A model generated the notes under the pieces. The model did no database searches. It saw only the letters and a list, made by a program, of their open reading frames with translations, and had not been told where the DNA came from. Shown in pieces: positions 715 through 8,780 of a DNA stretch of 64,000 nucleotides (the stretch's first letter is position 1; the number at the start of each line of letters is the position of its first letter). Origin of the DNA: an uncultured bacterium (lineage in GTDB: Bacteria > Krumholzibacteriota > Krumholzibacteriia > LZORAL124-64-63); contig CAVSZB010000007.1 of the NCBI GenBank assembly GCA_963732385.1, positions 1,504,001 to 1,568,000 on the forward strand. Reading direction: 5' to 3'. The position numbers and the translations under genes are program-made.

Positions 715-1986
715 ATGCCGGGACCGGTCGTCCTGCTCGTGAACAAGTTTTTCCACGCCGTCGGTCCGGCCGGCGGGGTCGGGCGCTATGTCCTTCAGGA
801 GGCGGACGATCTCGCGGCAGCCGGCTGGGAGCCGATCCCGTTCGCCATGGCCGACACCGACGCCCGCCCCTCGCCCTGGTCACCCTGGTTCGTGCGCGCG
901 CGCGACTACCGCTCGCCCCGCTGGTCGCCCCACGCACCCGCCGACGCGCTCGCTTTCCTCTGGAACCGCGAGGCGGCGCGCAACCTCGACCGGCTGCTGC
1001 GCCTGACGCGTCCCCGGATCGCGCATCTGCACAACATCTACCACCACCTCAGCCCCTCCATCCTGCCGGTGCTGGCGCGCCACGGCGTGCCGGCCGTGAT
1101 GACGCTGCACGATCTGCGCCTGCTCTGCCCGGCGATCCACATGCTGAGGCGGGGCGAGGTGTGCGAGCGCTGCCGGGGCGGCCGCTTCTACGAGGCGGTG
1201 CGCGGGGCGTGCGTGAAGGACTCCCGCGCGGCGTCGCTGCTGGCGGCCGTGGAGACGGCCCACCAGACGGTGCGCCGACTCTATCCGCGGCTCGTGCGCC
1301 GCTTCCTCTGCCCGAGCCGCTTCTACCTGGAGAAGTACGCGGCATGGGGCTATCCGCGCGAGCGCCTCGTGCACCTGCCGAATTTCGTCGACCTGGAGGA
1401 CTGGCGACCGTCGTCGGGGCCGGTCGACGCCGCCTATCTCTATTTCGGGCGGATCAGCGCGGAAAAGGGGCTCGGCACCCTGCTCGCGGCACAGGCCCTC
1501 TGGGAGGCCGAAAACGACGGGGCAGGCGCGCTCACGCTGCGCATCGCCGGCGAAGGCCCGTGGGCCGACGATCTGCGCCGCCGCGCCGCCGACCTGCGTC
1601 TGCGGCGGGTGGAGATCCTCGGCCCGCTCGACGGGGCGGCGCTGCGCAACGCCGTGGCGCGGGTCCGGTTCACCGTGCTGCCGTCACAGTGGTACGAGAA
1701 TTCCCCCTTCTCGATCTTCGAGTCGATGGCGGCGGGGCGACCGGTGGCGGGGGCGGACATCGGCGGGATTCCGGAGCTGATCGACAACGGCCGCGATGGC
1801 GTGCTGTTCCCCCCGCGTGATCCGGAGGCGATCCTCGCGGCGCTCAAACGCGCGGCCGCCCTCGGCCCGGCGGCCGGGGCGGCCGCGCGCGCGAAGGCGG
1901 AGCGGCTCTGGTCGCGGCCGGCGCACATGGCACGGCTGCGGGAGATCCTGGGCGAAGTCGCCGCGGCGGACGGCCCGCCCGCCTGA
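715..1986 (+). CDS. Glycosyltransferase family 4
   Basis: HLHNIYHHLSPS, TLHD, YFGRISAEKG, PSQWYENSPFSIFES (ExxxxxxxE) motifs. Confidence 0.93.
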   Translation: MPGPVVLLVNKFFHAVGPAGGVGRYVLQEADDLAAAGWEPIPFAMADTDARPSPWSPWFVRARDYRSPRWSPHAPADALAFLWNREAARNLDRLLRLTRPRIAHLHNIYHHLSPSILPVLARHGVPAVMTLHDLRLLCPAIHMLRRGEVCERCRGGRFYEAVRGACVKDSRAASLLAAVETAHQTVRRLYPRLVRRFLCPSRFYLEKYAAWGYPRERLVHLPNFVDLEDWRPSSGPVDAAYLYFGRISAEKGLGTLLAAQALWEAENDGAGALTLRIAGEGPWADDLRRRAADLRLRRVEILGPLDGAALRNAVARVRFTVLPSQWYENSPFSIFESMAAGRPVAGADIGGIPELIDNGRDGVLFPPRDPEAILAALKRAAALGPAAGAAARAKAERLWSRPAHMARLREILGEVAAADGPPA

Positions 1987-5043: not shown

Positions 5044-5103
5044 GGGAACCTCCAACACGGGAACGGGTTGGGAACGCGGTTGGCTTGTCGGGAGCGAGGA
5101 TCT

Positions 5104-5132
5104 ATTATAGAGGGTGCGCCCGGCGTCAACAA
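5104..5132 (-). promoter_or_regulatory. Putative sigma70 promoter for the TPPII-like gene
   Basis: Minus strand TTGTTG-N17-TATAAT, about 60 bp upstream of ATG 5043. Confidence 0.55.
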
Positions 5133-5178: not shown

Positions 5179-6366
5179 ATGGCCGACGTCAGCAAAATGC
5201 GCCTCGATACGCAGATCATCCATGCCGGACAACACGTCGATCCCCAGACCGGTGCGGTCAGCACCCCAATCTACCAGACCTCCACCTTCGCCTTCCGCGA
5301 CACCGAGGAGGGGGCCGCCCGCTTCAGCGGACGCGACCCGGGCTACAAATACACACGGCTGGGAAATCCCACGATCGCCGCTCTCGAGGAGGCCGTGGCG
5401 CTGCTGGAAGGCGGCTGCGGCGCGCTCGGCGCGGCGACCGGCATGGCGGCGGTCAACACCGTCTACCTGACCCTGCTGGGCCAGGGGGCGCACGTGGTGG
5501 CGACCGACTCGCTCTACGGACCGTCACGCATGATCCTCGAGACCGAGTACGCGCGTTACGGCGTAAAAGCAACCTTCGTCGACTCCGCCGATCCGGCCAA
5601 CGTCCGCGCCGCCATGCGGCCGGAAACGAAGCTGGTCTACATCGAGACGCCGGCCAACCCGACGCTCAAGTTGACCGACATCGCCGCCTGCGCCGAAATC
5701 GCGCACGCCGGCGGCGCGCTGCTCGGCGTCGACAACACGTTCGCCACGCCGCTGCTGCAGCGACCGTTCGATCTGGGCGCCGATGTCGTCCTGCACAGCA
5801 TGACCAAGTTCCTCAACGGGCACAGCGACGTCGTGGCCGGCATCGTCCTTGCGCGCGACCCCGAACTGTTCGCGCGACTGCGCAAGGTGCATGTCAATCT
5901 CGGTGGCACCATGGATCCCCATCAGGCGTGGCTCGTTTTCCGCGGACTCAAAACGCTGGGCCTGCGGGTCGGGCGCGCCCAGGCCAACACGCTCGTGCTG
6001 GCCCGACACCTCGAGCAGCACCCCAAGGTGGCCTGGGTCCGCTATCCCGGTCTGGAGAGCCACCCGCAGCACGATCTTATGCGGCGGCAGATGCGCGGCG
6101 GCGGCGCGGTCTTCTCTTTCGGCGTGAAGGGGGGCCTCGAGGCCGGCAGGACGTTCATCAACGGCATGAAGATCGCCACCCTCGCGGTGAGCCTGGGCGG
6201 CATCGAGACGCTGATCGAGCACCCCGCCTCGATGACCCACGCCGGCGTGCCGCTGGCCGATCGCGCTGCGGCCGGCATCACCGACGATCTCGTCCGCCTG
6301 GCGGTCGGCTGCGAGGATGCGGCGGACCTGGTGGCCGACCTCGACCAGGCGCTCGCACGGGTGTAG
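5179..6366 (+). CDS. PLP-dependent Cys/Met metabolism enzyme, methionine gamma-lyase-like
   Basis: PIYQTSTF, YTRLGNPT, ETPANP, DNTF, HSMTKFLNGHSD (PLP lysine), AVSLGG, HPASMTH; ATG 5179 after GAGG. Confidence 0.9.
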   Translation: MADVSKMRLDTQIIHAGQHVDPQTGAVSTPIYQTSTFAFRDTEEGAARFSGRDPGYKYTRLGNPTIAALEEAVALLEGGCGALGAATGMAAVNTVYLTLLGQGAHVVATDSLYGPSRMILETEYARYGVKATFVDSADPANVRAAMRPETKLVYIETPANPTLKLTDIAACAEIAHAGGALLGVDNTFATPLLQRPFDLGADVVLHSMTKFLNGHSDVVAGIVLARDPELFARLRKVHVNLGGTMDPHQAWLVFRGLKTLGLRVGRAQANTLVLARHLEQHPKVAWVRYPGLESHPQHDLMRRQMRGGGAVFSFGVKGGLEAGRTFINGMKIATLAVSLGGIETLIEHPASMTHAGVPLADRAAAGITDDLVRLAVGCEDAADLVADLDQALARV

Positions 6367-6371
6367 GCGTC

Positions 6372-7625
6372 ATGCACAAGCACTGGGTGGAGGCCGAGCA
6401 TCTGCGGGACCCCCGGGGCGGCGCGGACTTTCGGGCGGTGGACACCACCGCCCACCCCCTGCTCGACCCGGCGTTCCTGGAACGTCCGTCGCGTCTGCGA
6501 CGCTTCCTGCGCGGTTTCTACGAGCGCATCCGCCAGGACGACGATGCCTACCGCCGGGCCGTCGCGGCGCAGATCCACCCGCCCGGCGCGCCGTCGGACT
6601 GGGCATCCGACAGCCTGCGTCTGGCCGAGATCCTGCAGGAGGCGGACGCTTACATCCGCGAGATCGTGAACCTGCTGCCGAGCACGGCCGAGGCCCACGC
6701 ACGGCCAGCCGACTGCGTCACCGCGTGCGACGACCTGCGCGACCTGATCACGCTCGTGGTTACCCATCCTGACCGGCGCGTCCGGTTTGAGGCCCGGCGC
6801 AAGCTCTACCTCATGCGGCTGTTCCTGCAGGTCGACCAGTCGCGCCACATCCAGGACGGCCCCCGGCACAAGGCCTTCTTCGAGGAGTTGCTGCAGCAGG
6901 GGTTGTGGCGCCACGCCCGGCAGGTGCACGAGGTCGAGATCGGCTACAACATCGACGCCACCGGCCAGGCGATCGAATACAGCGTACGCCCCTCCGAAGG
7001 CCAGCAGACCTGGACCTTCCACTCGATCTTCCTCGAGCGAGACGGCATCCCGATCGACATCCTTTACCACGCCTGCCGCTTCAAGCGCACCGTGGACCCG
7101 GTCACCTACGAGATCGTCGACGGCCGCCGCCGCGTCCTCGAACGCAAGCGCTGGGGAGAGATGCGCCGGCAGAGCAGCGGCTCGATCGTTTCGAAAATGA
7201 TCCGCAAGGGGATCAACAACCCCGACGAGATCACCGACCTCATCGGCGCCATGTTCATCGTGCACGACGACAACGCCCTCGACGACCTGCTCCGCCTGCT
7301 CGACGGCATCCTCGGCACGACGATCACCTGGCGGAATGTGGTGGACACGCTCGGCGGCGCCGCCGACAGCGCGCGGCTGAACATCCACTCCGGCCGCGGT
7401 TACCGGGTCTTCAAGGGGGACGTGGACATCCTCTACCCGGACCCGGTCCCCTACCGGTTCCCGGTCGAGATCCAGATCTACACGCTGGAGGGTTTCCTGC
7501 GCACGGTGTGCGGGGCCCACGACGCGAACCACCTGGCGCTCAAGCTGCGGCAGTTCCTCTACGGCCTGGTGCCGCGGCTCTTCCCGCAGGCGATCTACGG
7601 CGGGGACTGGCTGAAAATCGACTGA
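6372..7625 (+). CDS. Hypothetical protein with a C-terminal RelA/SpoT-synthetase-like nucleotidyltransferase domain
   Basis: True start ATG 6372 (MHKHWVEAE), 5 nt after the lyase stop. Motifs in order: CRFK...SIVSKMIRKG, ITDLIG, GRGYRVF, PVEIQIYT, NHLALK. Confidence 0.7.
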   Translation: MHKHWVEAEHLRDPRGGADFRAVDTTAHPLLDPAFLERPSRLRRFLRGFYERIRQDDDAYRRAVAAQIHPPGAPSDWASDSLRLAEILQEADAYIREIVNLLPSTAEAHARPADCVTACDDLRDLITLVVTHPDRRVRFEARRKLYLMRLFLQVDQSRHIQDGPRHKAFFEELLQQGLWRHARQVHEVEIGYNIDATGQAIEYSVRPSEGQQTWTFHSIFLERDGIPIDILYHACRFKRTVDPVTYEIVDGRRRVLERKRWGEMRRQSSGSIVSKMIRKGINNPDEITDLIGAMFIVHDDNALDDLLRLLDGILGTTITWRNVVDTLGGAADSARLNIHSGRGYRVFKGDVDILYPDPVPYRFPVEIQIYTLEGFLRTVCGAHDANHLALKLRQFLYGLVPRLFPQAIYGGDWLKID

Positions 7626-7649: not shown

Positions 7650-8780
7650 TCAGAATTCCAGCGAGGCGCCGGCCTGGACGAGCCAGCCCTGCCAGGTCCA
7701 GTAGAGATCGTTGGACGACTGGTCGGTCCACTCTGCGCCGGCGCGCAGCAACATTCCGGAGGCGCCCCCGGCGAGATTGATCCGCTTGTCCGCACCGATC
7801 CGGAAGCGGTTGGAAGTGTCGCACCGGTCTCCCGTCCCCAGCGCGAGCGATTCGTCGCCCGCGACCAGGAAGAGATTTGCGACCGTATCGTAGAGCAATG
7901 GCGGCCGCCCCGGGTAGGTCAGAAGGAGCCGCTCCCCTCCCAGTTCCGCCATGCAGTTCCACGGCAGAATCACCTTCAGGGCCGCGCCGAAGCGATCGCC
8001 GGCCGCCGAGAATTCGTCCAGCAGGGGATTCTCGAAGGCAGCCAGCTCCCGCGCGGAATCGGTGCTCTCGAACAGCTTCGAGTGCGACCACCAGGCGCGG
8101 AAAGCGAAACGGGCAGAGAGGGACTGCGCCCCCTGCAGGCCACCCTCCCAGAGCGCCGCGCGCGGCAGCGCCCCCTCGGCATCGCGCTCGCCCGAGGCAT
8201 ACCGCTTCCAGCCGACGCGCCCCGTGAGCGAGAGACTGGTACGCGACGGCAGCGAGCGGCTCAGCCGCGCGCTCACCCACCCCTTCAGGGCGTCCTCGAG
8301 CGGCGCTTCCGGATAGAGCCGCTTCAGCAGATCGGTCCGCATCTCGAGGCTGAAAGCGCGGGTGAAATACCGTTTGGCCGAGGCATAGCCGCCCCCCTCG
8401 CGGTAGTCGTAGATCGCATAGAGATCGCCGTTGTGACGCAGGCTCCCGCTGGCCCCCGCGAGGTATTGGTGCCGGCGACCCGGACTGGATCCCTGCAGGA
8501 TCAGACCGCCGCTCAGATAGCCATGATCCAGCGTGGGGTTCTCGAAGAAGCGCACCAGCCGACCGGAAGCCTCAAAACGCAGCGACGAAATCGGCGTACA
8601 GCCGACCCAGGCCCGCCCGTCGATAATTCCGTCCGACGGAGAGGATTCCGTGCCAAACACGTTCGCCGCGTAGATCTGTTCCGCGCTCAGGCCGGTATTC
8701 CAGATGCCGTCACCAGCGTATGCCGTCGGCGCGATCGCGAGGAGGCCGATCAGGACGAGCGAGGCAGGGAGTCGCTTCAC
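7650..8780 (-). CDS. Putative outer-membrane beta-barrel protein
   Basis: Signal peptide (MKRLPASLVLIGLLAIAPTAYA), alternating amphipathic strands, C-terminal QAGASLEF; ATG overlaps the upstream stop. Confidence 0.7.
   Translation of the reverse strand: MKRLPASLVLIGLLAIAPTAYAGDGIWNTGLSAEQIYAANVFGTESSPSDGIIDGRAWVGCTPISSLRFEASGRLVRFFENPTLDHGYLSGGLILQGSSPGRRHQYLAGASGSLRHNGDLYAIYDYREGGGYASAKRYFTRAFSLEMRTDLLKRLYPEAPLEDALKGWVSARLSRSLPSRTSLSLTGRVGWKRYASGERDAEGALPRAALWEGGLQGAQSLSARFAFRAWWSHSKLFESTDSARELAAFENPLLDEFSAAGDRFGAALKVILPWNCMAELGGERLLLTYPGRPPLLYDTVANLFLVAGDESLALGTGDRCDTSNRFRIGADKRINLAGGASGMLLRAGAEWTDQSSNDLYWTWQGWLVQAGASLEF

Follow-up and report, generated by a model that had tools for sequence, protein, structure and literature searches.

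The stretch of DNA considered here, 64,000 nucleotides of contig CAVSZB010000007.1 (assembly GCA_963732385.1, forward-strand positions 1,504,001 to 1,568,000; hereafter the window), comes from an uncultured bacterium of the Krumholzibacteriota. In it, a gene for a Cys/Met lyase dependent on pyridoxal phosphate (PLP) is closely followed by a second gene, P0001, whose 417-residue product is predicted to have the synthetase fold of the RelA/SpoT homologues (RSH). P0001 is a core gene in two families of the Krumholzibacteriota and is antitoxin-free. Taken together, the readings in which it is an active enzyme are highly probable. The one we prefer, tentatively and with a little less than even confidence, is that P0001 would be an active, non-toxic, probably self-gated pyrophosphokinase that uses ATP to pyrophosphorylate an adenine or relaxed-purine nucleotide at its 3'-OH, acts beside the canonical Rel of the cell, and is merely co-expressed with the lyase in one family.

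The open reading frame (ORF) is a real gene, because its GC content at third codon positions (GC3) is 0.93, it differs from its counterpart in a congener by 40 synonymous and 18 non-synonymous codons, and it has 326 homologues at E <= 0.001. An initial annotation, made from the letters of the window, had called a 417-residue ORF starting 5 nt past the lyase stop, and the spacer (6367-6371) and ATG (6372) agree with that call.

Predicted donor and acceptor residues of P0001

The RSH motifs lie within residues 236-391 of P0001 in the order that had been described (RFK 236-238, SIVSKMIRK 271-279, ITDLIGAM 287-294, GYRVFK 343-348, EIQIYT 366-371 and HLALK 387-391), and with the same substitutions, GAM, GYRVFK and EIQIYT. 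The donor residues of FaRel2 are R64, K66, S70, K74, R77, D90, G93, R95, E145 and Q147 (PMC11782079; here and below, papers given by accession number are cited for the passages of them that were accessible). By motif order these correspond to R236, K238, S271, K275, R278, D289, G292, M294, E366 and Q368 of P0001, and the donor-site residues of RelP (PMC5794853) map by motif order to the same positions. Nine of the ten FaRel2 residues are kept; the exception is the adenine-stacking Arg, replaced by Met in 124 of 141 aligned homologues. R236, K238, K275, D289, G292, E366, Q368 and H387 are conserved in all 141, and S271 and R278 in 138. The claim that the catalytic Asp and Glu are intact holds for every one of these homologues, and D289 and E366 are also present in 29/29 sequences of the broadest alignment, down to ~20% identity. 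The Apk2 toxins are active despite having RYT for AVR, that is, without the Syn2 Arg (PMC12226406), and hence the loss of this Arg is compatible with activity.

The acceptor side is different, as had also been claimed, with the G-loop Lys, the SxH motif and the Syn4 Arg all replaced. Guanine is read in RelP by K147, N149 and Y151 (PMC13710873), and K-x-N-x-Y is found in 22 of the 24 translated PF04607 loci of the same phylum. Among the P0001 homologues the Lys147 position is Ser in 134/141 and the Asn149 position is variable, and the G-loop aromatic is retained as Tyr (74) or Phe (67). The SxH position is occupied by V-x-K, its Lys (K348) being invariant in 141/141, and the Syn4 Arg position by Y, F or H across the same set; for the SxH His and the Syn4 Arg we presume the roles that they have in RelP. 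P0001 fails the (p)ppGpp synthetase signatures K-x-N/S-x-Y, SxH, AVR and EIQIR, having S340, V346-x-K348, M294 and Y370 in these places, and it also fails the Apk2 (p)ppApp signatures RYT, GxN and YH, for which it has GAM, VxK and IY. Invariant residues that have no canonical counterpart are R143, K144, R393 and Q394 (141/141 for R143, K144 and R393), and K391 is found in 140/141.

By analogy with RSH chemistry, R236, K238, S271, K275 and R278 would hold the ATP triphosphate, D289 and E366 would hold Mg2+, and Y/F344 would stack on the acceptor base. Pyrophosphate would pass from ATP-Mg to a ribose 3'-OH; the acceptor is likely to be an adenine or relaxed-purine nucleotide, and not GDP/GTP alone. 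More speculatively, with the guanine-reading residues lost, the enzyme probably makes a (p)ppNpp that is not the classical alarmone; the N-terminal domain and the inserts may keep output low or gate it in cis, and Rel, whose hydrolase all tested carriers have, could clear the product. P0001 would follow the lyase in a likely two-gene operon of the window's family, where the inherited order would give co-expression and would not be needed for function.

Predicted fold and domain anatomy

Of the profiles named in the initial annotation, PF04607 matches P0001 with 19.7 bits (E 0.0011), short of its gathering cut-off of 27 bits, and TIGR04552 and TIGR04562 do not match it at E 0.1. Among the homologues, PF04607 at E 0.1 matches 20 of 34 close ones, and 4 of 31 distant relatives score at least 27 bits with it. 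No NCBIfam profile matches P0001, and querying the PDB with its sequence yielded three rows at E ~1, none of them a real match, so far as such cut-offs go in agreement with the earlier description of an uncharacterised family. When the PDB was searched with a broad family profile, RelQ/RelP-type proteins matched at E 1e-4. In comparison with the synthetase domains of canonical Rel proteins of the phylum, the family profile from the broad alignment A3 gave 97% probability (E 8e-11), and those from the narrower alignments A2 and A4 gave only 33% and 70%.

An AlphaFold2 model of P0001 was built on 141 homologues, with a predicted local distance difference test score (pLDDT) of 91.8 and a predicted template modelling score (pTM) of 0.90. 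It replaced an earlier model built on 34 sequences (pLDDT 70 around the insert, Foldseek E ~0.009, Z 8.6). Foldseek returned ten matches to the newer model at E <= 0.001, every one a small alarmone synthetase (SAS)-type structure, the best being RelQ/RelP (E 3.5e-4, prob 1.0). In a wide search with VIA-align, ranks 1-11 were all RSH proteins (Z 12.1 to 6.6) and the first non-RSH row had Z 6.2; the top match was RelP, with Z 12.1 and a root-mean-square deviation (rmsd) of 3.1 Å over 154 residues. The model predicts an RSH synthetase fold like that of RelP/RelQ, in line with the fold that had been proposed from the motifs.

In the predicted model the superposition on the synthetase domain begins at about residues 144-152 and is preceded by a helical domain. 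The initial annotation had left the N-terminal ~230 residues unrecognised; it was right that they hold no HD, TGS or ACT domain by Pfam or NCBIfam match, but the unrecognised part extends only over residues ~20-143. This domain is common to a sister clade of 470-residue proteins (profile match 96.5%). That it is a remnant of the HD domain was rejected, as its profile gave 0.2% against the HD region of Rel, and RbcX-like rows (Z 4.5-6.3) were treated as generic helical bundles. No longer fused forms of the family were found in a search covering 910-2595 residues. A distant relative of 785 residues, P0195, has its RSH-like region at the C-terminus, preceded by an unassigned N-terminal extension of ~350 residues.

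Syn1 is split: K238 and S271 are separated by a 32-residue insert, against 3 residues in canonical enzymes, and the length is 32 in 125/141 homologues. The model places a beta-hairpin at residues 244-257 within it. The insert is shorter in the 470-residue sister clade and absent from the relatives in the Candidate Phyla Radiation (CPR); in the latter the alignment misplaces R-x-K, and the raw sequences give the canonical spacing, which supports the mapping of RFK in P0001. The earlier description of about 30 basic residues between RFK and SIxxK stands as to length and not as to charge. In P0001 the insert has 9 R/K and 5 D/E, a net charge of 0 to +2 is the commonest in the family, and a conserved basic patch was rejected since the insert is near neutral on average across the 141 homologues. 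The features of the locus are collected in Table 1.

Table 1. Coordinates of the features in and around the lyase/P0001 pair (positions in the window; aa, amino acids).
Feature	Position	Strand	Remark
Glycosyltransferase-like gene	715-1986	+	Putative label from reading of the sequence
Divergent subtilase (PF00082), 1016 aa	1993-5043	-	Upstream flank of the lyase/P0001 pair
Sigma-70-like promoter candidate TTGGCT-17-TATTAT	5080..5108	+	Consensus match only
PLP-dependent Cys/Met lyase (PF01053), methionine gamma-lyase-like, YGPS type, 395 aa	5179..6366	+	TAG stop
Lyase-P0001 spacer, 5 nt	6367..6371	+	
P0001, divergent RelA/SpoT-synthetase-fold protein, 417 aa	6372..7625	+	ATG 6372, TGA 7623-7625
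N-terminal all-helical domain, ~aa 20-143	6429..6800	+	Ends in conserved E140-x-x-R143-K144 helix
RSH synthetase domain, ~aa 144-398	6801..7565	+	With extra beta-meander, aa 182-223
Split Syn1	7077..7208	+	R236-x-K238, 32-aa hairpin insert (7086-7181), then S271, K275, R278
Syn2	7236..7253	+	Catalytic D289, G292; M294 replaces the adenine-stacking Arg
G-loop/Syn3	7389..7415	+	S340 (Lys in Rel/RelP), Y344 (Y or F), V346-x-K348 for SxH
Syn4 and C-terminal residues	7467..7553	+	E366-x-Q368-x-Y370 (Arg in Rel); H387, K391, R393, Q394
Convergent gene of no assigned function	7650-8780		3' flank of the pair

Distribution, Rel and the partner lyase

The phylum was surveyed in 201 genomes of Krumholzibacteriota, in families labelled f1-f9, the window's family being f1. 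The P0001 gene is present in 78/86 genomes of f1 and 8/9 of its sister family f6, as well as in the window's genome, and is mostly single-copy; it was found in 0/104 genomes of f2, f3, f4, f5, f7 and f8, and one f9 genome has a weak match. Beyond the phylum, relatives occur in Eisenbacteria and Acidobacteriota (besides Ca. Krumholzibacteriota), by the names of the database records. The clades at ~20% identity include the 470-residue group, whose nearest Atlas cluster is 52% archaeal with Woesearchaeota commonest, and CPR proteins (Uhrbacteria). The tree of 60 locus and 19 database proteins is a quick version without bootstrap, in which the near-identical locus L120 was omitted and the long CPR branches are unreliable. 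Two loci, L041 (genome G068) and L042 (G091), hold a second divergent copy that groups with Acidobacteriota/Dormiibacterota-type sequences, a case of either transfer or binning contamination.

A conserved small partner gene was found in none of 41 distant, 27 sister-clade and 34 family loci, which extends to the family the earlier remark that no antitoxin is evident. PADLOC gave no match for P0001, and 29 pattern matches on viral contigs yielded 0 confirmed relatives. Canonical Rel is present in 22/22 carriers tested, each with an above-threshold PF04607 match in a long frame of Rel size, which in one carrier is divided between contig ends. By comparison, PF04607 was found in 1/20 genomes (>=94% complete) of f4, f5, f7 and f8, families with the P0001 gene in 0/85, and much of the phylum may be without the Rel/ppGpp system through loss. 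The idea that P0001 replaces Rel was rejected, as a full-length Rel is encoded in the window's genome, along with a separate PF04607 protein. At G000:C5:54392-55396 (L002), a second stand-alone PF04607 protein, a 334-residue frame with 68.6 bits, canonical motifs and atypical neighbours, is possibly a mobile SAS.

The lyase scores 489 bits against PF01053, above the Pfam cut-off, with the PLP lysine K210 invariant and Y58, R60, Y113, K210, S338 and R373 intact. Its best match in the PDB and NCBIfam (E 3e-133) is the methionine gamma-lyase (MGL) of Citrobacter freundii (PDB 5e4z/3jw9; TIGR01328), with which it has Y58, R60, Y113, K210 and S338 in common. It differs from MGL in reaching 457 bits where the equivalog cut-off of TIGR01328 is 550, being below every NCBIfam cut-off shown, and in having Pro115 where the Citrobacter enzyme has Cys115; YGPS is found in 47/47 aligned lyases (alignment A6). 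The earlier label of methionine gamma-lyase-like thus fits the best match and not the equivalog, and the protein is MGL-like by sequence alone. The lyase belongs to this YGPS subtype. Lyases 50-62% identical to it occur across Krumholzibacteriota and in Eisenbacteria, and the window's genome has four other full-length PF01053 paralogues, one of them in a metK-lyase (YGGT) pair on contig C8. In a congener (L024, genome G200) the lyase seems to carry a frameshift around residue 247, which may be an assembly error.

Within f1, the lyase and P0001 adjoin in 70/70 genomes with both matches, and hence the linkage is not unique to the window's genome, as had been asked of it, though it is confined to f1. 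Among the eight genomes with the enzyme only, five have a cut-off lyase at the contig edge and three end at or within the gene; two of the three lyase-only cases are contig edges, and in the third, G118, the lyase is followed by a different gene. One locus inside the f1 clade (L131) has no lyase within 6 kb, and five f1 genomes are without both genes. In the 45 family loci where a start could be called, the spacer measures -4 to 73 nt. The gap of 135 nt between subtilase and lyase holds one promoter candidate, against 0.2 +/- 0.5 in shuffles, which likely drives the lyase and P0001 as a two-gene unit, and the pair would form a two-gene operon in the window's family. Contigs of close relatives, from four freshwater-sediment RNA runs of one study, take in both genes, three of them bridging the junction; the same contigs also span the divergent gap, which points to possible library DNA, and they were set aside as evidence of expression.

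Known relatives and rival readings

To our knowledge, every stand-alone RSH synthetase described so far either makes ppGpp or is a toxin paired with an antitoxin. The P0001 clade, core, antitoxin-free and with its catalytic residues intact, carries a third set of acceptor-site signatures. RelP (SAS2) and RelQ (SAS1) (PDB 6fgk, 6ewz, 5dec, 5ded) match its fold with Z 11-12 and rmsd 3.1-3.5 Å over 154-164 residues, and are like it in the ATP-Mg donor residues, the G-loop aromatic, the lack of HD, TGS and ACT domains and a place outside a toxin-antitoxin (TA)-like locus. P0001 differs from them in being twice as long, with an extra helical N-terminal domain, a beta-meander and a 29-residue insertion in Syn1, at 16-18% identity, and in its sites, where the equivalent of Arg112 is Met, that of Lys147 is Ser, SxH is VxK and EIQIR is EIQIY. 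The (p)ppApp synthetases Tas1/Apk1 and Apk2 have the same fold (Z 7.5 for Tas1), and Apk2, like P0001, has no Arg at the canonical Syn2 position and no SxH motif; unlike P0001, these are exported toxins with immunity genes. FaRel2 and CapRel, toxic SAS (toxSAS) tRNA pyrophosphokinases, have in common with P0001 the donor residues and an N-terminal helical extension with basic residues, and CapRel has its own in-cis control (VIA-align Z 8.1 to the P0001 model; FaRel, Z 4.8). Both keep the Syn2 Arg (R95 in FaRel2) and are TA or anti-phage toxins, whereas P0001 is core and had no antitoxin found; it fails the locus test for a toxSAS, its sole fixed partner being a PLP lyase.

The families TIGR04552/TIGR04562 (M. 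xanthus MXAN_4858; Bdellovibrio NC01 DOE51_RS08710) are stand-alone and uncharacterised, like P0001, at ~350 residues compared with 417-430 in the P0001 family. Fifteen of 31 homologues match these profiles weakly (E 1e-7 to 8e-3; best 31.5 bits against cut-offs of 125/140), over the Syn1-2 region, the C-terminal region and, in two proteins, the N-terminal region, and 0/201 genomes of the phylum exceed the cut-offs. These weak profile matches suggest that the P0001 family is a distant relative of TIGR04552 and not a member. MXAN_4858 has a modest developmental fitness effect (bioRxiv 10.64898/2026.08.28.747804), and TIGR04552 also appears in a mutation table (PMC9888234); in the accessible text on TIGR04552, neither source mentions RSH. 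The RSH survey of 2011 includes a catch-all divRel group (PMC3153485), and none of the top-ranked literature titles dealt with RSH in these phyla or with an MGL-SAS operon. The P0001 clade may be uncatalogued, being below Pfam and NCBIfam cut-offs, and the datasets on SAS subfamilies in PMC7229694 may be relevant to any prior classification. Standard annotation misses the clade, whose members are named hypothetical where they are named at all. Together with the TIGR04552-like, CPR and 470-residue sister clades it widens a little-explored part of the RSH superfamily, and if its acceptor is new, it would add a further kind of pyrophosphorylated product.

Several observations weigh against the reading of P0001 as a pyrophosphokinase of adenine or relaxed-purine nucleotides beside Rel. 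The combination GAM/VxK/IY fits neither the ppGpp set (AVR, SxH, IR) nor the ppApp set (RYT, GxN, YH), and motif swaps left the specificity of Apk2 unswitched (PMC12226406), from which it follows that the acceptor is not readable from sequence. RelQ carries Ser at the Asn149 position (PMC13710873), so that this site tolerates change in true ppGpp synthetases. The spatial convergence of D289 and E366 is taken from the predicted fold match, and Phe in the G-loop of 67/141 homologues may mean weak activity. The co-occurrence of Rel and P0001 may go back to a single lineage-level loss, and f2/f3 have Rel in 9/9 genomes, yet the P0001 gene in 0/19. The chance of a second adjacency to a lyase, such as that in four Eisenbacteria loci, is low by a rough estimate, at only 0.01-0.07.

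Among the rivals, it is rather unlikely that P0001 pyrophosphorylates an RNA 3' end (tRNA CCA or other) in a regulated, non-toxic manner, with the N-terminal domain or the hairpin binding RNA or gating the enzyme as in CapRel. The basic residues that are conserved beyond the donor site (R143, K144, K348, K391 and R393) would suit such a role, as would the replaced Syn4 Arg and SxH His and the presence of CapRel among the fold matches; in FaRel2, K28/R29 of the N-terminal helical extension bind tRNA, and the acceptor-phosphate patch is smaller (PMC11782079). On the other side, RelP/RelQ are better structural matches than CapRel or FaRel, the SASs known to target tRNA are toxins that lie with their antitoxins in TA-like loci (PMC7229694) while P0001 is core, mostly single-copy and off viral contigs, and in the model R143/K144 appear mid-helix and not in a loop matching K28/R29. 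That P0001 is an ordinary SAS, a second source of (p)ppGpp beside Rel with its substitutions compensated, we regard as unlikely. The RelP/RelQ matches, the retained G-loop aromatic and the Rel of every carrier tested agree with it, and syn motifs alone do not fix specificity (PMC12226406), but the replacement of the G-loop Lys, SxH, Syn2 Arg and Syn4 Arg together with the invariant K348 looks more like selection for another pocket than like drift. It is very doubtful that P0001 is a pseudo-enzyme or a sensor of nucleotides, which would bind ATP or (p)ppGpp without turnover and signal through the N-terminal domain: Met for the adenine-stacking Arg, Syn1 split by 32 residues and the frequent G-loop Phe speak for it, and the invariance of D289, E366 and Q368, of which D289/E366 extend to the broadest alignment, speaks against it.

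Coupling to the lyase, whether P0001 senses the lyase or its products or modifies a sulfur-pathway metabolite, such that Met/Cys catabolism controls a nucleotide signal, is improbable. It draws on the constant f1 adjacency, with its short spacers and one promoter candidate, and on the five genomes without both genes. It also draws on four loci of an Eisenbacteria subclade in which metK and a different, YGGT-type lyase paralogue lie ~300 nt upstream of the P0001 homologue, a second, independent adjacency that is a weak hint of coupling, and on a divergent rhodanese-methyltransferase fusion next to or near the gene in 9/41 distant loci (L061, L062, L063, L065, L069, L071, L074, L075, L093). However, an adjacent lyase is found in 0/10 f6-type loci, 0/27 sister-clade loci and 4/41 distant loci (37/41 are without), and 4/5 f6 carriers tested have no YGPS-type orthologue, their best lyase identity being 47-52%. 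The lyase also persists without P0001, in the G118 locus and in f4 (36/42) and f7 (8/8), where lyases are 50-60% identical and the P0001 gene is found in 0/42 and 0/8. The block is syntenic anyway (among 36 f1-clade loci, lyase 35, subtilase 30, glycosyltransferase 23, mqnA 15), and the Eisenbacteria genomes have, besides the ~300-nt gap, a closer lyase (60-61%) located elsewhere. The f1 link appears to be part of a wider inherited synteny and not to be needed for function, and obligate coupling of P0001 to sulfur catabolism, the connection that the initial annotation had drawn, is not supported by these comparisons. The lyase link matters only if it is functional, and the comparative data do not require function. 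A broader proposal, which we also consider improbable, is that the members of the family are housekeeping pyrophosphokinases of RSH fold that gate themselves and act on a new acceptor, either an RNA end or a non-guanine nucleotide messenger. On this view the family, spread over Krumholzibacteriota, Eisenbacteria, Acidobacteriota, CPR and a Woesearchaeota-containing clade, would stand twice beside Cys/Met lyases since its signal reports or controls sulfur amino-acid flux.

The neighbours of P0001 homologues other than the lyase are widely variable. A stand-alone B3/4 domain gene comes after the rhodanese-methyltransferase fusion in four of the loci that have it, and in the f6 loci L034, L035, L037 and probably L033 the P0001 homologue is immediately followed by a small gene with a STAS domain. 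In one of the 27 metagenome loci of the 470-residue sister clade (L207:2-4705), a gene for the anti-phage nuclease Avs4 lies directly upstream of the sister-clade gene.

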